NCBI GenBank assembly: GCA_016193315.1
Contig: JACPSJ010000005.1
Location: 68 to 64,067, forward strand
Length of the DNA: 64,000 nucleotides
Direction: 5' to 3'
DNA from: Candidatus Kerfeldbacteria bacterium
GTDB taxonomy: Bacteria > Patescibacteriota > Patescibacteriia > SBBC01 > CAIJZX01
Positions 2,859 to 15,165 of the stretch are shown here, piece after piece. How positions within the stretch are numbered: the stretch's first letter is position 1; the number at the start of each line of letters is the position of its first letter. Made by a program: the position numbers and the translations under genes. The notes beneath the pieces were generated by a model. The model had not been told where the DNA came from and did not search any database. It was given only the letters and a program-made list of their open reading frames with translations.

Positions 2859-3185
2859 ATGGACTTCGTGATCCCGAACAAGCAGATGTTCATGCGGCAT
2901 TATGTCGAGTTGGTCGGCAAAGACTTCCTCGGTTGCGGTCGCATGCTTCACATCACGTTTCGCCAGAAGCCGTGTGCCCACAGCTTCCGCTTCGTGGCCC
3001 TGTTCCACGTCAAGGGTCTCAAAGCCAAGCAGGTTCGGGGCACCTTCTACTGGAGCTATTTCAACGAAACCGAACAGTACTTCGACGTACGAGTTAGTGA
3101 CGGTACGCACGAAGGAGAAGTCTTCTACCACGTGCTGAACGAGGAGATCCTGACGACCGATCCGAGAATCAAGGCCATTGCCTGA
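2859..3185 (+). CDS. cassette ORF, hypothetical (~108 aa), opposite orientation
   Basis: Protein-like composition (MDFVIPNKQMFMRHYVELVGKDF...); the overlapping - strand ORF 2709-3203 is R/G-rich antisense-like. Confidence 0.35.
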   Translation: MDFVIPNKQMFMRHYVELVGKDFLGCGRMLHITFRQKPCAHSFRFVALFHVKGLKAKQVRGTFYWSYFNETEQYFDVRVSDGTHEGEVFYHVLNEEILTTDPRIKAIA

Positions 3186-3271
3186 AGTCCGCACCTTCCC
3201 CAATATGGGGCCGAGGGTTTCTGAAAGGAGCCCTCGGTTTTCGTTTATTTAAAGACTCGAACTCAAATGGC

Positions 3272-3334
3272 GCACAACGTTTCGCGCGTCATACGCGGCG
3301 GAGCGAAGCGGAGTTGCGTATACGCGCTGTTGTA
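3272..3334 (-). repeat. attC-like site 4 (63 bp)
   Basis: GCACAAC-GTTTCGCGCGTCATACGCG...GCGTATACGCGCT-GTTGTAC; 5' 7-mer complements 3' 7-mer of site 3. Confidence 0.65.
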
Positions 3335-3386
3335 CGATGATTTGCCTCCCGACCAATAAAGATAAGCGCGGTTTCACCGTTGCTAA

Positions 3387-3878
3387 TTACTCGCCAAGTA
3401 GTTCCTCAGCAACTTCAAGGGCTATGTCATATTGAGATTTACCAGCCTTCTTCCGCTCGTATTCGTATGCTTCTGACAGAACTTCGTCTTGTGCCTTGTC
3501 TATCAACACAGCTTCTTTCGAGACTTCGGGCGTAACCTGTGTTCTAAGCTCAGCTAATTTGTAAAACTTATTGTAAAGTTTTCTAATGACATCTGAGCCT
3601 TCGTAAGAAAAGCTTTCAACGTCAGAAGTGTTTCCATCACCAAGTAATAAACCATCAATAAATCCGTACCCACGAGAGGTAAGGTATACCGAGTGTCCGT
3701 TGAGAGTCCCTTCAATTCGGGTATCCGGCCCATATGAACTTGCTTCAAGCTCTATATCACCCGTGACATTGAGTTCAGATTTCAATTTCTCGTATAATTG
3801 CAGTTTTTCACGTAACTCTGACAGCTCATGCTGTGATGGCGTCATTATTTCTTCTGGTGATGGTCGATCTTTTTCCAT
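3387..3878 (-). CDS. cassette ORF, hypothetical (163 aa), AT-rich
   Basis: ORF between attC sites 4 and 5; compositionally AT-rich relative to host. Confidence 0.55.
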   Translation of the reverse strand: MEKDRPSPEEIMTPSQHELSELREKLQLYEKLKSELNVTGDIELEASSYGPDTRIEGTLNGHSVYLTSRGYGFIDGLLLGDGNTSDVESFSYEGSDVIRKLYNKFYKLAELRTQVTPEVSKEAVLIDKAQDEVLSEAYEYERKKAGKSQYDIALEVAEELLGE

Positions 3879-3945
3879 TGAGATATAGATAGTGTTCTAG
3901 TCTAGAGAAACCGCGCTTATCTTACAACGAGGGAGGCAAATTTTC

Positions 3946-4039
3946 GTACAACGTTTCGGGCTAGCCGAAGTTTGGCTGTGGTACACTTGCGCACCAGCGC
4001 CCACCACAGCCAAATTTGGGTGAGCGAGCGCCGCTTTCA
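3946..4039 (-). repeat. attC-like site 5 (divergent variant)
   Basis: GTACAAC-GTTTCGGGCTAGCCG, inner 13-bp palindrome AAGTTTGGCTGTGG/CCACAGCCAAATTT, degenerate far end (GCTTTCA instead of GTTNNNN) overlapping the stop codon of the 4037-4624 ORF. Confidence 0.5.
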
Positions 4040-4624
4040 AATGATATTCCAAAGTCTGGTTGTCGGGTCGAGTTTATATTTTTGTACGTTGATGTGAACA
4101 GGTTTTCCTAAGAATGTAAAACCATATCTCACATCTAATATTATTCCATTGTCCGTAAGCTCTTTTTCTAAGTCGATTTCATTATCCTTTAAGGATTCTT
4201 TTGTGTTGAAAGGGTAAACACGGGAATCTCTTGCGGCCATGTACATTGCTACCTTGGAAAGGTTTTTGAGAATAATAGTTCTTTCTTTAAGTACCACAAT
4301 GAAAGTAATGGTTAAATCTTCGAAAGCATTATCGGTAGTGTTCATGTAGTGAATTTCGGTCGTGGGATTACCTTTCATAACACGAATTAACAAGGCTGGC
4401 TTCTTGCTAGCAACATAAGCCTTGTTAGTATGCCAAAAGCTAGCTATTACAAATGAAGCGGAAATAAATGCAGCAATTAATCCCCAAAGAGAAATCCAGT
4501 GGCCGATTTTTTCACTGGCTGTAATATTCCCTAAATGAGATTGCAGCCAAATATAATACGACAACCAGACACCCAGAAGAAGGAGAGAAATTATTATTGT
4601 TGATAATACATACTTTGTCTTCAT
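4037..4624 (-). CDS. cassette ORF, N-terminally membrane-anchored hypothetical protein (195 aa), AT-rich
   Basis: N-terminal TM helices (LSTIIISLLLLGVWLSYYIWL, WGLIAAFISASFVIASFW); second gene of two-gene cassette. Confidence 0.55.
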   Translation of the reverse strand: MKTKYVLSTIIISLLLLGVWLSYYIWLQSHLGNITASEKIGHWISLWGLIAAFISASFVIASFWHTNKAYVASKKPALLIRVMKGNPTTEIHYMNTTDNAFEDLTITFIVVLKERTIILKNLSKVAMYMAARDSRVYPFNTKESLKDNEIDLEKELTDNGIILDVRYGFTFLGKPVHINVQKYKLDPTTRLWNII

Positions 4625-4666
4625 GGCGCTCGCGAACCGGCTAGCCCGTGTTAGGCGGAGTAAATT

Positions 4667-4873
4667 TTAGTCGGGTCTACTTAAATCTTCTAAGTATTTT
4701 TCAGCATTCTTCTGGTTGTTGAATGTTTGTACGGTATAACCTATTCCATCTCGGTCAATTTGGTTACGTTTTCGTTGAGTTTTGTATACCACAAAAGAGT
4801 CTTTGCTGACTTTTCTAACGTTAAACCAATAACCCTCTTTTTCTATATATTTCGATGATATTTCGGTAACCAT
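4667..4873 (-). CDS. cassette ORF, hypothetical (68 aa), AT-rich
   Basis: ORF co-oriented, 42 bp upstream of 4037-4624 with no attC between. Confidence 0.45.
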   Translation of the reverse strand: MVTEISSKYIEKEGYWFNVRKVSKDSFVVYKTQRKRNQIDRDGIGYTVQTFNNQKNAEKYLEDLSRPD

Positions 4874-4898
4874 AATAGGAATGACTAAAATTTATTTC

Positions 4899-4983
4899 GC
4901 CTAACGTTTGCGCGTCATACGCCCGTCATCCGAAGCTTTAGCGTAGGATGATGGCGTATACGCGCTGATATATGATGTTGGCA
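4899..4983 (-). repeat. attC-like site 6 (first attC next to attI side)
   Basis: GCCTAAC-GTTTGCGCGTCATACGCC...GGCGTATACGCGCT then GATATATGAT-GTTGGCA; on - strand ends with canonical GTTAGGC. Confidence 0.65.
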
Positions 4984-4995
4984 CATGATTGTTTG

Positions 4996-5427
4996 TCACT
5001 TGCTTTTCATTATCCACCAACTCTTATCGTCTCCAATGTAAAAGGGGTCTTGTGTTTTTCTATAACGCTTAAATCCAAGTTTTTCGTGCCCTTTCAAAGA
5101 GGCGATATTTTTGGACTCAATGTAAGCAATGATAGTCAAACCTTGAGCATCTTCTTTGAGTCTCTCGTATAGTTTGGTGCCTATTCCTGTCCGTCGATAT
5201 TTTGGATGTACAAACCAATCAGCGATATATACCTCGTCATTTTTAGTTTTCATGGCTATTATTGCACCAATAATTTCATCTTGATCCTTAGCCAGAAAAA
5301 CATAGCCGAAAGAGACAAAAGAAGCTATGTCATAGGTGCCGGTCATGTAAGGTCCGCCCCAGACTTTTCGTTCGAACTCCCTGACTTTCTGACTCTCACT
5401 GGGCTTTGCTCTGGAAATTTTAATCAT
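4996..5427 (-). CDS. GNAT family N-acetyltransferase (first cassette)
   Basis: Acetyl-CoA binding motif region YRRTGIGTKLYERL; 143 aa; flanked by 11-bp inverted repeat CATGTGCCAA(C) at 4977-4987 and 5428-5438. Confidence 0.7.
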   Translation of the reverse strand: MIKISRAKPSESQKVREFERKVWGGPYMTGTYDIASFVSFGYVFLAKDQDEIIGAIIAMKTKNDEVYIADWFVHPKYRRTGIGTKLYERLKEDAQGLTIIAYIESKNIASLKGHEKLGFKRYRKTQDPFYIGDDKSWWIMKSK

Positions 5428-5522
5428 GTGCCAATTTCATATATCTCGTTATTATGCGAACCTGGGTGGGCAGATAGCCTCATTATTGCCTATTTTGTTA
5501 AATAATGCTATGAATAAAGCCG
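5428..5522 (-). promoter_or_regulatory. candidate attI / divergent promoter region between intI-like gene and first cassette
   Basis: AT-rich 95-bp spacer; aTTGGCAC at the cassette-1 junction mirrors GTTGGCAC at the far side of attC site 6; TTGCCT-17-TATGAA promoter-like on + strand. Confidence 0.3.
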
Positions 5523-6371
5523 GTGGCGAGAAAGGCCACCAATTTTATTATGACGTATATTCAATCACCGCTTGATCGGACCGAAACCGAGCTTCGGATC
5601 CGCAATTACAGCCCTCGAACTCGGCAGAGCTATGTGCACTGTCTGCGCGCATTCTTTTCGTTCGTCGGAGCGGACGTTGAGCGCTCGAACGAGGAACGCG
5701 TTCGGCAGTTCCTGCTTTCTTTGGAACAGCGCGGCGCTTCACCTCAGACGCGGAATATTCATTTGAGTGCCATCAAGTTTTACTATCGGTGTGTTGTCCG
5801 TTCCGGTGCGCTGATCGCTGTCCCGGCCGCTAAGAAATCGGCCGCCTTGCCAGCGGTTCTTTCCCGCGATGAGGTCCGCCGGATGCTGGACGTGACCGTC
5901 AACGAAAAACATCGCCTGCTGCTAGCGCTGGCATACGCCGCGGGACTTCGGGTGAGTGAGGTGGTGGCCTTGCGCGTCGGAGATATCGATCTGCCGGAAC
6001 TCACCGTGCACATCAAACGGGCAAAAGGACAGAAAGACCGGATCAGCATCATGCCGGAGACCTTGCGCGAAGAACTCTCGCGTCTCATGGCGGGAAAGGG
6101 GGGCGATGCGCCGGTGTTTGCTAGCGCGCGGGGCGGAGTGCTCACGACGCGTACCGCACAGAAAATCTTTGAGCACGCGCTTGCTAAAACCGGCATCAGA
6201 AAACCGGCCACCTTCCACAGCCTGCGCCACAGCTTTGCCACCCACCTGCTGGAAAACGGAACGGACGTGCGCTACGTGCAGGAACTGCTCGGGCACCAAA
6301 ACATCAGAACAACCCAGAGATACACCCGGGTCACAAATCCGATGCTCAAACACATCAAGAGCCCGCTGTAA
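5523..6371 (+). CDS. IntI-like tyrosine recombinase lacking the IntI-specific additional domain (282 aa)
   Basis: N-term RIRNYSPRTRQSYVHCLRAFFSFVG and KGQKDRISIMPETLREELSRL, C-term GIRKPATFHSLRHSFATHLLENGTDVRYVQELLGHQNIRTTQRYT (R-H-R-Y catalytic residues) closely resemble IntI1 blocks; ~40 aa shorter than IntI between patch-II lysine and box HxLRH. Confidence 0.8.
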   Translation: MARKATNFIMTYIQSPLDRTETELRIRNYSPRTRQSYVHCLRAFFSFVGADVERSNEERVRQFLLSLEQRGASPQTRNIHLSAIKFYYRCVVRSGALIAVPAAKKSAALPAVLSRDEVRRMLDVTVNEKHRLLLALAYAAGLRVSEVVALRVGDIDLPELTVHIKRAKGQKDRISIMPETLREELSRLMAGKGGDAPVFASARGGVLTTRTAQKIFEHALAKTGIRKPATFHSLRHSFATHLLENGTDVRYVQELLGHQNIRTTQRYTRVTNPMLKHIKSPL

Positions 6372-6631: not shown

Positions 6632-6721
6632 ATCCCGCGCATGGCGGAGGGTGGAGGATTCGAACCTCCGAGAAGCTTGCGCCCCTACTGGTTTTCGAAA
6701 CCAGCGCATTCGACCACTCTG
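6632..6721 (-). tRNA. tRNA-Ser (anticodon CGA), class II with long variable arm, CCA encoded
   Basis: Acceptor GGAGGGU/ACCCUCC, D-stem GCA/UGC, anticodon loop UUCGAAA, T-arm GGAGGUUCGAAUCCUCC, discriminator G + CCA. Confidence 0.85.
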
Positions 6722-6840
6722 CCAACCCTCCGCCATGTGCGGTGACAACCACTCGGCCACTCCTCCGTCAGGGATTTTCCGATACCCGACAGGCTGGCCG
6801 ATTGTAGCCCGTTTGCTATCATACATCAAGTCGGAACACC

Positions 6841-10302: not shown

Positions 10303-11943
10303 ATGATCCCCGCTCCCCCTCCACCGAACGCGTCTACTGCTGCCCCGCCCGCGACCAGCAGAGTTGATGGCTTTATCCGTCGCCACGAGTTTTGGTCTTG
10401 GCTGATTGTATTCCTGGCGATTGGCATCTACGGTACGCTCCTGTCGGTCCCAAAGAATATCCGGGAAATCGTCACCTTCGACTGGTTCTATGATCTTGCT
10501 TTCCACATCCTCGTTTGGCCGTCGGACGTCGTCTACGCTTTCGTCAACCAATGGGTCGACTGGCAGGAGAGGGTTGACGCTGGGCTACAAGTTGGGTTGG
10601 CCGCCCTGCTGTATCTCTACCGTCACCTAGAGCGGCGACTAGTGACAAAGCCAACGCCAGTCGTCCGTCGTCAACGGCTATGGCTGGCTGCCGGATCACT
10701 GTCAACTGTCTTGCTGCTAGCCATTATCTGGATCACCACGCCGTTCCCTAAAGATTTTTTGAAGATCTTCACCACTCCTATCCCAGCCCGTGTGATCAGT
10801 GAGACCCCAACGCCGCTCCCTACCCTTTACGTGGCCACCCGCCAAGGAGTATTCCGCGCCTCTGATGATGAAGCGGAGAAACGATATGGCACGCTCCAGC
10901 CATTCAGCCGGACCACGGACGTGATCAAGATCAATACCACCCAATCGGCAGTCTATCTCTACGCCAAACAGGGGGTCCAACGATTCGATCATGGTGGTCG
11001 GCTGAAGAGCGAGTGGAAGCGGACATCATCACCGACCTACCGCCTGCCGACCGCGGAGGAAACCCGAAACGGGGCGGCGGAATACGATGAATTGATGGCC
11101 GGCGTCTACGACCGCGGGAAACTTTACATCGCCGCCAACCGGTCGCTCATTATCCTGGACGAGCAGCTCCGCGAACTCGGTCACCTCAGCCCGCTCCAAA
11201 AGAATGAGCTTAACCAGTACAAAGCGATTGATGACGTTCTAGTCCATGACCAAACGGCTTTCCTGGTCGACGACATCGCTTATCCGCTGTTCGTTTTCTC
11301 GGTCGACATCAGCAACCCTCGGCAGCCACAGCTGCTGCACACCATCGGCGTCGGCGGCGTCTACGCTACCATCAGCAACCAATGGCTCGATCGAGCCAAC
11401 GAGGATTGGTGTTTCCAGCAGGAGACGAGCAGTGGCTACACCGGCAATTTCACTTCCGTCGCCTGCGTCCCGAAATCCCTCTACCGATCGCCTGGCTCGA
11501 CGAACCCCGACGGCTACGGACCAAACGACCCGGCCATCCGAACTATTGAACTCGGAGAAAGTAACCACGAAATCGAGCCCGAACTACGCACCGGCAAAGG
11601 ATTCACTATCTTGAAAGACCTGAACTGGACCGACGACTGGATGTTTATTGAACAAGCCAAAAGCTATGATGACCAAATTGTCGGTCTTGGTTCTGACTAT
11701 TCTGTCCAGGCGCAACAGTCCATTGGTACCAACCTCAGCAGCGGGTCAATAGTTTTCTACCGCTATCGTGATCACGTTTTCCTCTATGCCCTTGACACGC
11801 TCAATGTCCTCCGCGACAATGGCGAGGTGCTGGCCGGTGAACACTCGCAGACTATCCCCCAGGTTGAGGTTGATCGGACCGATGGATACCAAGGGAAGAT
11901 GAAGGTGCCGGCCTGGATAACATTCGCCGCTGATCCACGTTAG
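10303..11943 (+). CDS. large membrane-anchored hypothetical protein (546 aa)
   Basis: N-terminal TM helices then long extracytoplasmic domain. Confidence 0.6.
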   Translation: MIPAPPPPNASTAAPPATSRVDGFIRRHEFWSWLIVFLAIGIYGTLLSVPKNIREIVTFDWFYDLAFHILVWPSDVVYAFVNQWVDWQERVDAGLQVGLAALLYLYRHLERRLVTKPTPVVRRQRLWLAAGSLSTVLLLAIIWITTPFPKDFLKIFTTPIPARVISETPTPLPTLYVATRQGVFRASDDEAEKRYGTLQPFSRTTDVIKINTTQSAVYLYAKQGVQRFDHGGRLKSEWKRTSSPTYRLPTAEETRNGAAEYDELMAGVYDRGKLYIAANRSLIILDEQLRELGHLSPLQKNELNQYKAIDDVLVHDQTAFLVDDIAYPLFVFSVDISNPRQPQLLHTIGVGGVYATISNQWLDRANEDWCFQQETSSGYTGNFTSVACVPKSLYRSPGSTNPDGYGPNDPAIRTIELGESNHEIEPELRTGKGFTILKDLNWTDDWMFIEQAKSYDDQIVGLGSDYSVQAQQSIGTNLSSGSIVFYRYRDHVFLYALDTLNVLRDNGEVLAGEHSQTIPQVEVDRTDGYQGKMKVPAWITFAADPR

Positions 11944-11947
11944 GAAA

Positions 11948-12187
11948 ATGCCAAAAACTCGTCATTCGCTCGGTTTCAAAATCAAAGTCCCGCCGGATTT
12001 TGCTAAGGCGCTACGCACCCGACCGCTGACGCTACGAGCGTTTCAATCCATGCCGCCTTCCCACCAGCGCCGCTACGTCGAGTACATCTACGAAGCCAAG
12101 CTAGAAAAAACGCGCCGGCAGCGTATTGCCAAGTCGCTGTCGATGATAGTCGCTGGGGAACGGAAACGCGTGACTGGTTGGTCTTAG
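11948..12187 (+). CDS. YdeI/OmpD-associated (bacteriocin-protection-like) small protein
   Basis: RAFQSMPPSHQRRYVEYIYEAKLEKTRRQRIAKSLSMI matches family signature. Confidence 0.55.
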   Translation: MPKTRHSLGFKIKVPPDFAKALRTRPLTLRAFQSMPPSHQRRYVEYIYEAKLEKTRRQRIAKSLSMIVAGERKRVTGWS

Positions 12188-12254: not shown

Positions 12255-13289
12255 CTACGGTTGACGACGCTGCCTGGCCTGTAGCTGGCGATACTCGTCA
12301 AGTGTTTTCTGCTCGATCCGCAGTCGCCCGACTGGGACGCGGCGTTCCGATCGGCGGCCATTGATATCAACCAATTCCCACCGCCGCGGCAAGGTGGCCG
12401 TGAACACGCCCATCATGCCATGCAGCGCGGCCAGATCAACGGCTGCTCCTTTCCGGGCGGCGTGGACGAGGGTCCGAATCCGCCGCAGGTACCAGCGGGG
12501 GCAGAATATTGTGCCCTGCCGATTGAGGCACACACCGTTGATGGTCAGTGGGCCTTTGCGGATATCAAGGTTCTTGGCCTTGCGGTCGCTGACGGTAAAA
12601 CCGGCGTCACGAATCTTCCGTCTGATGACCTGCCGTTTCTTGGTGCCAATCGACCGCTCGCGCGAGGAGAACGTCAGGTCATCAAGATAGCGACTGTACG
12701 TCAACCCATAGCGCTGGCACAGTTCCCCGAGTGGCTGATCCAGTGTTATCGCCACATATAGGTTGAAGAGATCGGGCGAAGCCGGGCCACCTTGGACCAA
12801 CCCGCCGCGACGTCTTTGCCCGATCGGCAACTCGAGCTGGTACGGCTTGTTCGGATTCGGGCCGAAACAGTAGCCGAGCAAGAAATCGAGTACCGCTCCA
12901 TCCTGGACGGTCAACTCCGGACAGTGCTGGCAGATGATACCCGCCAACAGACCGGGGTCGACATTGCAGTAAGCGTGGCGGAGGTCGTAGAGCAAGAAGT
13001 AGCGGTTCGGTCGGTATCTGGCCGGTCGGCCGCGGTTATCGATATAGAGGTGTCGCCGGACATTCACCACCGGCGAACCGGCCGGCCGCGCGCCGACTGC
13101 ATGCGGCATCGGCACGTTGAGGCCCCGGAGAAATCGGACCAAGCGATGGTGCAACAGCCGCATGGCCGGATTCGGCGCGCCGAGCAACCGCACCTTGGTC
13201 GTGCCGCCGAGCGGGTTGACATCCCGATAGCGGAAAGGCTGCCAGGCCGGTTTGCCGGGCAAGCCGGTGGTAAAGCTTTCAAGGATCAT
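12255..13289 (-). CDS. retron-type reverse transcriptase
   Basis: NVRRH (NAxxH-like), FLLYDLRHAYCNV, LVQGGPASPDLFNLY, YSRYLDDLTFS, PLTINGVCL (VTG-like); GGAGGAG RBS before MILESF start. Confidence 0.8.
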   Translation of the reverse strand: MILESFTTGLPGKPAWQPFRYRDVNPLGGTTKVRLLGAPNPAMRLLHHRLVRFLRGLNVPMPHAVGARPAGSPVVNVRRHLYIDNRGRPARYRPNRYFLLYDLRHAYCNVDPGLLAGIICQHCPELTVQDGAVLDFLLGYCFGPNPNKPYQLELPIGQRRRGGLVQGGPASPDLFNLYVAITLDQPLGELCQRYGLTYSRYLDDLTFSSRERSIGTKKRQVIRRKIRDAGFTVSDRKAKNLDIRKGPLTINGVCLNRQGTIFCPRWYLRRIRTLVHAARKGAAVDLAALHGMMGVFTATLPRRWELVDINGRRSERRVPVGRLRIEQKTLDEYRQLQARQRRQP

Positions 13290-13345
13290 TACTCCTCCAC
13301 TGATCGGGCGAATATGGAACACTCGCCCGTTTTAGGTTTTTCGAG

Positions 13346-14530
13346 TCACCCCGAAAGGTGATCGAGACTCACGACAATGATCGTGAGCAGGAGGATTTCA
13401 ACGCCCCGATTATCGAGGCGTCCACACCGTATCACAAAACTACGAAAAAGCAAGAAAAGACCGGGCCCATCGGGTCCGGCTATGCGCAGCGGCGTGGCCG
13501 CAGAATGATCAGCGAGATCCAGGAAGTTGCGCGGGCGTAACGCGCGTTCGCTGAGGTCTGGGTCTTCCGCGCCGGCCGCGGGCGTCCGCGGTCCGAGAGA
13601 AAGAGAACCCCGAACCTGAGAAGGTTCTCCCCGACTTAGGGAGTTCCGTACCACGACAAAGATCGTGGAATCTTTCTTACTTCCTCGACGCTACTTGCCA
13701 CTCCGACCTTGCAAGTTTTCCTGGATCTGGTGGCCGCTCCTTGGAAGGAACGGTGCTGAGACCTGTGACCCCGAAGGATCACTCGGGCCTCCGAACCTAC
13801 ACTACCAAGCCTTAGGAAAAAAAGAAAGGCCAGACCCGATGGATCTGGCTATGCAAAGCGGTTGAGCCGCGGAACGTGCAGCGGAAGTGCGGAGACGGTG
13901 TTGCTGTTCGGGCTGGGGCTCGCTGAGGTTCGCTCCACCGCGTGGAGAACGGACGGGTGCGAACCGTGCTGGGTTGTCCCCGAAGGGACTCCCGACCGAC
14001 GACAATGATCGTCGGTTTCGTGTTGCTCCTCGTTGAGTCAAAGAGCCCGAACGTTTTCCGGCCCCGCACCTGGCTTTTAGCCTTCCGGCCTCGGGACGTA
14101 ATACGTCCCTTGTCCGGACCGGAGGCAGGCTGAAGCCATGATACCATGAATGTTTACAGACGAGCAAAAAGAAACCCCCGTGGCACGACGAGGGTTATTG
14201 TCAGCCCTTGCAGGCGTAAGGTTCAGCGGAGGTCCAGGGCCGTTGCGAGTTATGTGGTGGTTGGCGCGATGCTGCGCTCCGTTCGCGGCGCGCGTGCCGC
14301 TGAGTCGCTGCGACATCGATCGCTCATCCAGCGATAACCGTGCGGAGAGACGATGAAGTCGAAGTCCGACTTGGGAAGGATGACTTCCGTTCGGAAGCCT
14401 CCGCCTGACGACGAAGATCGTCAGGGTAGTACTACCTCAGTGGATCTGCCCGAACTGGAACGCCGACCATGGACCGTGTCCTCCGAAACGCCGCGGGAGC
14501 GAGCCCCGTAGCCGGAGCGAGCCGAGTACG
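13346..14530. repeat. non-coding array of degenerate structured repeats with four covarying hairpins xxACGAC(A/G)A(A/T)GATCGTxx
   Basis: Hairpins at 13368-13387, 13651-13668, 13994-14015, 14404-14425 with identical inner ACGA/TCGT and compensatory outer pairs; recurring CCCCGAA(A/G)GG and CGCTGAGG motifs; no credible ORF. Confidence 0.45.
13440..13479 (-). terminator. candidate rho-independent terminator on - strand
   Basis: CCGGGCCC/GGGTCCGG hairpin followed (on - strand) by TCTTTTCTTGCTTTTTCG. Confidence 0.4.
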
Positions 14531-14538
14531 CTTGCGGA

Positions 14539-15165
14539 GTGAAGCCAAGCACGCTGACCATATTCTACCCCGATGATTGGCCGACCCACAAGGGCTTGTG
14601 CTATCCTCAAGCCATGCGCCTCGGCTTCATCCTCATTGCCACTGCGATTGTCATTGTTTTTGTTTCCTGGCTAACCGCCAAGCGCGATACGAGCGAACCG
14701 ACGCTGAATACCAATGCGCCAGCGACCGTAGTCGTCACCAGCTCAGCTTTCACCAATAACGGCAACGTCCCGGCCAAATACACTTGCGATGGCCAAAACA
14801 CCAGCCCACCGCTGCAAATCAGCGGCCAACCGGCCAACGCCAAAGGCCTGGCCCTGATTATGGACGATCCAGACGCACCGGGAAGAACGTACACTCACTG
14901 GCTGGTTTGGAACATCCCGCCGCAAACCTCGACCGTTAGTGAAGGTCAATCCCCCAGCGGCGCAACCGGACAGAATTCCGCCGGCCAGTCTATTTACACC
15001 GGGCCATGCCCCCCAAGTGGCACGCATCGTTACTATTTCCGTGTTTACGCTCTCGATGCTGAGCTGACTCTGGCCGCCGGATCTTCGAAGTCCGACGTGG
15101 TCAACGCCATGAGCGGGCATGTTCTCACCCAGGGCGAATTGATTGGGCGGTATCGTCGGCAGTAA
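14539..15165 (+). CDS. YbhB/YbcL family (PEBP-like) protein with N-terminal signal/TM
   Basis: DDPDAPGRTYTHWLVWNIP and GPCPPSGTHRYYFRVYALD motifs. Confidence 0.75.
   Translation: MKPSTLTIFYPDDWPTHKGLCYPQAMRLGFILIATAIVIVFVSWLTAKRDTSEPTLNTNAPATVVVTSSAFTNNGNVPAKYTCDGQNTSPPLQISGQPANAKGLALIMDDPDAPGRTYTHWLVWNIPPQTSTVSEGQSPSGATGQNSAGQSIYTGPCPPSGTHRYYFRVYALDAELTLAAGSSKSDVVNAMSGHVLTQGELIGRYRRQ

Follow-up and report, generated by a model that had tools for sequence, protein, structure and literature searches.

The question raised by this locus is what a reverse transcriptase (RT) of the retron type works with when no effector gene can be recognized beside it. The RT gene lies on the minus strand of a 64,000-nucleotide (nt) stretch of contig JACPSJ010000005.1, hereafter the window, which comes from a metagenome-assembled genome (MAG) of Candidatus Kerfeldbacteria; the ClpB that it encodes matches a protein from a MAG of this name at 100% identity. 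An earlier note, made from the sequence alone, had remarked on the missing effector and on a gap of 1.1 kb without open reading frames (ORFs) upstream of the gene. We find that this gap contains an array of three complete tandem units (212-265 nt) of a structured non-coding RNA (ncRNA), plus one partial fourth unit in the RT leader, and that it is probably the system's set of RNA templates. The reading we favor, and consider fairly likely, is that of a two-component, retron-like RT/ncRNA element of bacteria of the candidate phyla radiation (CPR) that would make several small complementary DNAs (cDNAs), the synthesis of the cDNA, its branching and its role all being predicted.

The Reverse Transcriptase and its Relatives

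12255..13289, minus strand: RT gene, 344 amino acids (aa) and stop codon, ATG at 13289, with a YLDD active site, NVRRH in region X and ING at the VTG position
13292..13298, minus strand: Shine-Dalgarno sequence GGAGGAG, a few nt 5' of the RT start codon (sequence reading)

The RT frame is intact where the earlier note had placed it and matches Pfam RVT_1 (E=2.9e-13), with no additional domain found by Pfam scan or in the AlphaFold2 model. A GTG-extended ORF reaches up to 13322 as an alternative; position 13289 is the likely start because the homologues begin at the MILE/MLFE position. The four motifs that had been quoted in favor of a retron RT (NVRRH, YSRYLDDLTFS, QGGPASPDLFNLY and PLTINGV) are each recovered in the translated ORF. 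Retron RTs are defined by NAxxH in region X, where H is the most conserved residue, and by a VTG triplet in region Y, where G is the most conserved (PMC7736814). In the window region Y reads ING, not VTG, and across an alignment of 26 members of the RT family there is no variation in the YLDD, in the H of NVRRH or in the G of ING, the N of NVRRH is nearly invariant, and region Y reads I-N/T-G-V/I.

By sequence profile and by predicted fold the window enzyme is assigned to the retron clade, and the identification made in the earlier note is upheld by PADLOC, by profile search of the PDB and by Foldseek, all of which rank retron RTs first. The best 25 PADLOC models for the window RT are, without exception, retron RT models (among them RT_outgroup at 1.9e-21, RT_other, RT_XIII and RT_II-A), and the matches lie mostly in the palm and thumb, at residues ~170-295. 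Every one of the 26 family RTs likewise matches many retron-type models, the best at 1e-24 to 1e-33, with no single type dominating. A profile of the 26 members searched against all PDB sequences finds retron Ec83 (2e-28), Ec86 (6e-26) and Ec78, Ec67 and Kva2 (~1e-18), as compared to 4e-10 for the group II enzyme GsI-IIC, 1.3e-6 for Drt2 and 2.5e-4 for Drt3a. With the AlphaFold2 model (mean pLDDT 87.6, pTM 0.86) as the query, the top 12 Foldseek matches in the PDB are retron RTs (Eco2, Eco7, Ec83, Ec78, Ec86, Eco8), and the enzymes of group II introns, G2L4, DRT2, diversity-generating retroelements (DGRs) and DRT9 follow at lower ranks, the DGR RTs 27th or lower. In NCBIfam the RT matches retron_St85 (67.8 bits) and the Ec67 and TIR-retron models, with scores for the retron models (50-68 bits) that are all far under their cut-offs of 235-600. 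Because every NCBIfam retron model falls so far below its cut-off and no PADLOC type dominates, the RT is placed, on these profiles, outside the defined retron types, none of which it fits.

Other classes of RT were considered and rejected. None of the profile searches assigned the enzyme to the DGR, Abi or group II classes, and the window holds neither a second copy of the upstream sequence resembling a template-repeat/variable-repeat pair nor a second copy of any other array segment, which, together with the low rank of the DGR RT structures, speaks against a DGR. A group II intron was set aside on the absence of intron RNA by Rfam and on a group_II_RT_mat score of 27.9 bits against a cut-off of 300, and DRT2 (UG2) on an NCBIfam Drt2 score of 28 bits against a cut-off of 390 as well as on the PDB value given above. 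UG38, a class 2 UG/Abi RT group of Parcubacteria/Nealsonbacteria and hence of the CPR, was named by Mestre et al. 2022 (PMC9226505); the far better retron scores argue against a UG/Abi placement, UG38 included, and do not settle it, the comparison being with UG2 and UG3 enzymes only.

A word-indexed search of 5.8 billion proteins returned 73 relatives of ~300 aa at 33-47% identity to the window RT, those with named hosts being nearly all from MAGs of Parcubacteria or other Patescibacteria (CPR). An exhaustive profile search of 1.84 billion cluster representatives returned 483 family clusters (50% identity) at E<=1e-30, and the best 150 of the 483 are mostly near-full-length matches of ~300 aa. 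In a set of 185,579 species genomes (one genome per species) we found 41 RT loci, of which 38 are good matches; nearly all belong to CPR MAGs (Paceibacterota, Saccharibacteria, Wildermuthbacteria, Vogelbacteria and others), and so sparse a distribution, in variable genomic contexts, would fit an accessory element. In phage the family is essentially absent, with only weak palm-domain matches in 50,697 phage genomes and one weak match in IMG/VR.

The Array Upstream of the RT Gene

The description of the upstream 1.1 kb as being without ORFs has to be qualified: mechanical ORFs of 52-121 aa do exist in 13323..14538, and an ncRNA array fills the stretch. None of these ORFs has a Pfam match even at E<=1, and the gene callers on two public assemblies of the locus recorded a single 52-aa ORF, on the opposite strand; a protein-coding reading of the array was rejected on these grounds. 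The array and the RT leader, in the order in which they are read on the RT strand, contain the following.

14222..14486, minus strand: ncRNA unit A, 265 nt, complete (covariance model 65.3 bits, E=8e-15)
14163..14196, minus strand: terminator-like hairpin and U-run after unit A
13877..14088, minus strand: ncRNA unit B, 212 nt, complete (covariance model 47.5 bits, E=6e-10)
13819..13849, minus strand: terminator-like hairpin and U-run after unit B
13508..13738, minus strand: ncRNA unit C, 231 nt, complete (covariance model 55.7 bits, E=3e-12)
13445..13480, minus strand: terminator-like hairpin GCCGGACCCGATGGGCCCGG and U-rich run after unit C, resembling the unit B terminator (sequence reading)
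13409..13437, minus strand: sigma-70-like promoter candidate TTGTGA-17-GATAAT, 5' of unit D and the RT gene (consensus scan only; weak)
13343..13388, minus strand: partial unit D in the RT 5' leader, H1-H2 only, without a1/a2, box1 or box2

On the RT strand the motif ACGATCnTTGTCGT occurs in four copies, at 14421, 14012, 13666 and 13384 (spacing 409, 346 and 282 nt). Each copy tops a hairpin, H1, which is followed by a second hairpin, H2; the stem sequences differ between copies and the pairing is kept. Each complete unit contains, in order, a segment a1, a UGAGG or CGAGG box, H1, H2, a variable hairpin, a conserved box1, a segment a2 that is complementary to a1, and a box2, all on the minus strand, as follows.

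Unit A: a1; UGAGG box, 14439-14435; H1 motif, 14421-14408; H2; long variable hairpin; box1 ACUCAGCG, with CTCAGC at 14304-14299; a2; box2 CGCUGA
Unit B: a1; CGAGG box; H1 motif, 14012-13999; H2 with a UUCG loop; variable hairpin; box1 with CTCAGC at 13927-13922; a2; box2 CGCUGC
Unit C: a1, ~13727-13710; CGAGG box; H1 motif, 13666-13653; H2; variable hairpin; box1 ACCUCAGCG, with CTCAGC at 13555-13550; a2; box2 CGCUGA

The a1/a2 duplexes have predicted energies of -24.8 to -25.1 kcal/mol in unit A, -23.5 to -23.9 in unit B and -27.6 to -28.6 in unit C, and the minimum free energy folds of the three units (z=-3.1, -4.2 and -2.4, respectively) each close with a1/a2 and contain both H1 and H2.

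The units share only ~51% of aligned columns. With an a1/a2 and a terminator-like hairpin of its own in every unit, the array resembles a set of separately maintained genes more than a recent duplication. The 3' tails of units B and C resemble each other more than either resembles that of unit A. Between box2 and the terminator hairpin, B and C also have in common a second CCGCU(G/U)(C/U)GCAUAGCC element (13480-13494 and 13850-13864, minus strand) that is missing from A, an indication that the duplication of B and C is the more recent one. The locus is present in two public Logan assemblies that are 99.97-99.99% identical to the window, and a copy-number polymorphism of the array is accordingly not supported by them.

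The partial unit D, whose H1 motif is ACGATCATTGTCGT at 13371-13384, was detected by the covariance model as a local match that spans model positions 17-62 (13.8 bits; E=0.0037 when 1.4 kb were searched). A comparable partial copy (631-727) overlaps the RT start in one of the related loci, L017, where a complete ncRNA lies downstream of the RT. Through such an H1-H2 copy in the leader the RT may bind its own mRNA, and may in this way regulate it or assemble on it.

Two further ideas about the array were tried and given up. A spacer-like function was rejected because the array has no match to phage genomes. Direct repeats between the two flanks of a unit were rejected as a general feature, the longest common substring being 5.9 nt for cognate flanks versus 5.6 nt for non-cognate ones. 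A direct repeat of 7-10 nt does occur in the 5' and 3' flanks of a few units (unit B, AGCAACAC, at 14025-14018 and 13903-13896, and units in L003, L004 and L007); where seen, these repeats had pointed to template jumping.

A Family of Structured RNAs Linked to the RT

The same layout is found in the closest related loci (designated by L numbers here) despite a lack of BLASTN similarity. From 5' to 3' it comprises a variable a1, a yUGAGG box, H1 (9 bp), H2 (7 bp), a short AUCGG-like element and a pyrimidine-rich tract, and then a variable hairpin region of 40-149 nt, box1 ACCUCAGCG(G), a spacer, a2 complementary to a1, and box2 (C)CGCUGA. Neither the H1 motif pattern nor BLASTN with the array returned a match in the related loci; the ncRNA is conserved in structure and in short boxes only. 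Rfam 15 has no family for it: in the window and 15 related loci only tRNAs reached the gathering threshold, and the matches at E<=10 were noise.

The covariance model was built on the core module alone (UGAGG-H1-H2), and a1/a2 and the boxes were analyzed separately, since whole-unit MAFFT alignments misaligned the boxes. In the seed alignment of the core, 85% of cells are paired and 14 of the 16 pairs show double changes; none of 500 shuffles reaches the observed covariation, and slid controls are paired in 40-52% of cells. One model-based realignment brings the core to 88.9% paired with 115 double-change cells, again unmatched in 500 shuffles, and the slid controls for the seed and realigned core taken together range from 36 to 52% paired. 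The model gave 30 matches as R1 and 34 as R2 in the window and the 41 genome loci; all but one of the 34 directly flank the RT, upstream or downstream, and are on its strand, and many were not in the seed. When R2 was applied to 66 metagenome loci fetched after the model had been built (a few of which are the same contigs as genome loci), it returned 44 matches, 42 of which lie no more than a few hundred nt from the RT and are on its strand. Throughout the family the ncRNA is a conserved, structured molecule with physical linkage to the RT.

The number and placement of units vary. Two units are found upstream of the RT in L001, L002, L005 and L006, on either side of it in L003 (3748-3982 and 5107-5320), downstream in L010/L058, and also in L063; the window array, with three complete units and a fragment, is the largest among the loci examined. 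The ncRNA lies downstream of the RT in L009, L010, L014, L016, L017, L020 and many of the metagenome loci. Because it can be downstream or on both sides, co-transcription of the ncRNA followed by the RT is not obligatory in the family. Box2 is followed directly by the RT ribosome-binding site in L002, L003, L006, L013 and L030, and by a hairpin and U-run terminator in L001, L007, L008, L015 and all three window units. The variable hairpin, which occupies regions of 70, 40 and 67 nt in units A, B and C, is of only modest stability (mean z=-1.2), and there are extra segments between it and a2. A pyrimidine-rich tract of 6-16 nt follows H2 in most units (UUCUCUUUCUCUC in unit C, 13611-13599; CUCCUUUUUCUUUUC in L017); conceivable roles are those of a template, of a site where the RT stops or of one where a protein binds.

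The Closing Stem and the Box Pairings

To evaluate a1/a2, the 25 nt abutting box2 were folded against the 100 nt upstream of every unit's core for 25 units, an a2-anchored test that replaced the unconstrained duplex folding of long flanks, which over-extended. Cognate duplexes average -30.2 kcal/mol as compared to -18.4 for non-cognate ones, and the cognate partner is the best of the 25 in 17 of 25 units. Every unit is closed by its own complementary ends, as in the msr-msd RNAs of retrons.

The boxes have pairings of their own. The UGAGG is complementary to the CCUCA of box1, and the CGCUGA of box2 is complementary to the UCAGCG of box1; for the scoring of both pairings, the boxes of 20 units were extracted by hand and aligned without gaps.

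UGAGG:CCUCA: 93% of cells paired, 3 compensatory changes (UGAGA:UCUCA in L002 and L009; CGAG:CUCG in the second unit of L003)
UCAGCG:CGCUGA: 95.8% of cells paired, 5 compensatory changes, 0/500 shuffles (UCAACA:UGUUGA in L004; L017 and L030 at the last pair)

Two units that were left out of this alignment agree with the box1:box2 pairing, the second unit of L005 with UUAGCG:CGCUAA and L010 with CAACGAUC:GAUCGUUG. The two pairings of box1 overlap on UCA, and box1:box2 also crosses a1:a2, an arrangement that is suggestive, and not conclusive, of alternative conformations or of a pseudoknot in which box1:box2 would stack on a1:a2. The conserved inner junction of the RNA, where UGAGG pairs with CCUCA, has a nearly invariant A before it, and one of the G residues of the UGAGG may serve as the branch point. 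A purine/pyrimidine helix enclosing H1-H2 was also tried and rejected, as it fits unit C and not the other loci.

The Genes Around the Element

The earlier note had found no recognizable effector, and this observation now extends to the family as a whole. The search for partners in related genomes that it had proposed was run with ORFs of >=60-70 aa from 39 and then 102 loci, covering +/-3-4 kb and clustered by BLASTP at E<=1e-4 or 1e-5. No conserved partner protein was found in the 102 loci, the only cluster that spans them being the RT itself (98 of 102). The next largest is an amino-acid permease (9 loci, some of them duplicates), followed by an ABC-F-type ATPase (5 loci), HSP20, and TatD with MetRS, which are housekeeping genes, and by a small EF-Tu-domain-like ORF; distance and orientation vary for all of these. 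None of the neighbors of the RT and its array in the window recurs beside another RT of the family. They are the following, of which the first is the oppositely oriented YdeI-like gene that had already been noted downstream of the RT.

11948..12187, plus strand: OmdA/YdeI-like gene, convergent with the RT gene, not part of the system (Pfam PF13376, E=1e-17)
14539..15165, plus strand: PEBP/YbhB-family gene, outside the system and divergent from the array (Pfam, NCBIfam)
10303-11943, plus strand: 546-aa ORF, convergent with the RT locus, with a hydrophobic N-terminal region and no Pfam, NCBIfam or PADLOC match

Elsewhere in the window a tyrosine recombinase gene (Phage_integrase, E=4e-41; 5523-6371, plus strand) adjoins a tRNA-Ser(CGA) gene (6642-6731, minus strand), and positions 3000-6000 are low in GC (38-48% versus ~58% elsewhere); the region may represent an element that integrated 3' of tRNA-Ser. 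This tRNA-Ser/integrase island was rejected as the context of the RT, which lies beyond the other side of the tRNA, there being also no att-like repeat of the tRNA end. tRNA genes are also found near the RT/ncRNA module in L008, L009, L022 and L028, with four of them directly downstream of the RT in L008 (4949-5515).

Proposed Mechanism and Alternatives

The components of the element, as we see it, would be a minimal RT of ~300-344 aa from the retron clade and its own structured ncRNA family, here in the form of three independent tandem genes and a hairpin-only leader fragment. By analogy with retrons, the RT would recognize the conserved H1-H2 module as the equivalent of msr, on an RNA that is closed by the a1/a2 stem as extended by UGAGG:CCUCA. 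Synthesis would start around the conserved UGAGG / ACCUCAGCG junction, where the closing stem has its inner end, and would copy the variable hairpin just 5' of box1, the msd equivalent (40-75 nt in the window units), with the pyrimidine tract on the far side of this hairpin as a candidate stop region. Since the three units have distinct variable hairpins, three different small cDNAs are predicted from one enzyme. Because nothing else is conserved, the biological output would have to be carried by the RT-RNA-cDNA complex itself or by an unlinked host factor, and the analogy with retrons and DRTs would by default suggest a role in defence. A broader proposal, which we advance tentatively and with less confidence, is that these are effector-less retrons found across the CPR, each combining one minimal RT with a natural array of diverged templates (a 'multitron') whose several small cDNAs would be the functional output; they would then represent a second independent RT lineage with ncRNA arrays, after UG27, and a new architecture in which a1/a2 is joined by a box1/box2 pseudoknot or switch.

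Several observations weigh against the retron-like, two-component reading. In nearly half of the loci (~18 of 38 genome loci and ~32 of 66 metagenome loci) the model finds no ncRNA at E<=0.01, and short contigs, divergence or a real absence may be the cause. The weakest a1/a2 duplexes in the set are those of the window units (-23.5 to -27.6 kcal/mol), which are not the top-ranked partners in their own rows. Box1 can pair with either UGAGG or box2, and the covariation behind both pairings consists of a few events in hand-extracted, mostly invariant boxes. The canonical branching G of retrons, which faces another G where a1/a2 has its inner end, is not apparent. The neighborhood comparison, with BLASTP over +/-3-4 kb, would miss a partner that is unlinked or evolves very fast. 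The reverse transcription of the ncRNA is itself presumed from analogy with known systems, and a branched product of the retron kind and a free one of the UG27 kind would both fit the sequence.

In the UG27 systems, variable arrays are made up of units that are diverse in sequence, conserved in structure and provided with a pseudoknot, and the central hairpin of these units gives a cDNA of 50-100 nt (bioRxiv 10.64898/2026.09.22.753630); their class 2 UG/Abi RT is found in prophages of Bacteroidota and Bacillota and is accompanied by two accessory proteins (bioRxiv 10.64898/2026.09.22.753630; PMC9226505). The idea of an array thus has a precedent, and because the UG27 ncRNA array has been shown experimentally to template short cDNA hairpins, it is more plausible that the array described here serves as template too. 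The resemblance includes one RT with a tandem array of sequence-diverse units, a variable hairpin between short conserved motifs and a possible crossing of a1:a2 with box1:box2, and one could suppose that here, as in UG27, the central hairpin yields a free, unbranched short cDNA hairpin and that the a1/a2 stem is a mere scaffold, in keeping with the lack of a visible opposed-G branch site. We regard this mechanism as unlikely: the RT is far nearer to retron RTs (2e-28) than to Drt2 (1e-6) or Drt3a (2.5e-4), there are no counterparts here of sORF and bORF, though UG27 needs both for cDNA synthesis, the start motif AUCN7UANAG was not found in the array, and the family is essentially absent from phage collections. 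Identity with UG27 was rejected on the missing accessory proteins, phage context and start motif. The two differ also in that UG27 units are ~150 nt long and average ~6 per locus, whereas those of the present family are 210-270 nt with a1/a2 and number at most three per locus, beside a retron-clade RT that is chromosomal in CPR bacteria and has other motifs and no accessory proteins.

A canonical tripartite retron whose effector is non-adjacent, residing elsewhere in the small genome or supplied by the host of the episymbiont, would be in line with the fact that all 13 defined retron types have an effector (PMC7736814) and with a survey that extended +/-3-4 kb; yet in characterized retrons the effector is adjacent or fused, which is the basis of the type definitions, and the 102 loci share only RT and RNA in varied housekeeping contexts, so that we hold this to be quite improbable. 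It seems more doubtful still that the repeated RNA is not a template and is instead a cis-regulatory element or scaffold, e.g., a leader that binds the RT to control its expression and whose duplication was accidental. The hairpin-only copies in the RT leader (unit D in the window and that of L017) and the position of box2 directly before the RT ribosome-binding site in several loci would suit such a function. Full units have their own terminators, however, at distances of up to 1.1 kb from the RT, the ncRNA is downstream of the RT in many loci, and the array units have diverged to ~50% identity and yet have kept their pairings, which argues for selection on each ncRNA copy. That the element is a decaying or selfish remnant without present function might be suggested by its patchy distribution (38 good-scoring loci, 41 in all, in the 185,579 species genomes) and by its variable genomic contexts, and we give this scarcely any credence in view of an intact ORF with invariant catalytic residues, hundreds of family clusters and compensatory changes that maintain the ncRNA helices.

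Relationship to Known RT Systems and Significance

With retrons of types I-XIII (PMC7736814) the element has in common an RT that is of their clade by profile and fold, with NVRRH in the manner of NAxxH and the glycine of ING/ITG at the VTG position, and an ncRNA beside the RT on the same strand, in which unit-specific inverted repeats a1/a2 enclose short conserved hairpins and then a variable hairpin. It differs from them in having no fused or adjacent effector, in an RT that belongs to no defined type, in its host range (CPR), in a closing stem that is long and interrupted, in the UGAGG / ACCUCAGCG / CGCUGA boxes with their overlapping or crossing pairings, in the lack of a recognizable opposed-G site, and in an RNA gene that is present in 1-3 tandem copies upstream or downstream of the RT. 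DRT2 (UG2) and DRT9 (UG28) are similarly minimal, consisting of one RT and one adjacent structured ncRNA, and are defence systems whose cDNA product is itself the effector; their RTs are of another lineage, their ncRNAs lack an architecture of the a1/a2 type, and rolling-circle or homopolymer synthesis has no support here. Engineered 'multitrons' (PMC10370050) also provide several tandem ncRNA or msd units to one retron RT and are synthetic, in contrast to an array that is natural and consists of diverged units, each with its own a1/a2 and terminator. In a search of open-access papers and bioRxiv we found no description of this CPR RT family or of natural retron ncRNA arrays.

In CPR bacteria, DGRs were thought to account for ~80% of all RTs (PMC8632793). 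If the reading favored here is correct, it would extend retron biology to the CPR and would provide an example of an RT of the retron clade that seems to function with no effector protein at all. The ncRNA constitutes a defined, testable RNA family that is missing from Rfam, and the combination of a compact RT of 300 aa with a natural multi-template layout is of practical interest for retron-based DNA production and multiplex editing. Taken together with the report on UG27 (September 2026), the arrays of this family suggest that tandem template RNAs are a recurrent solution among the RT systems of prokaryotes.

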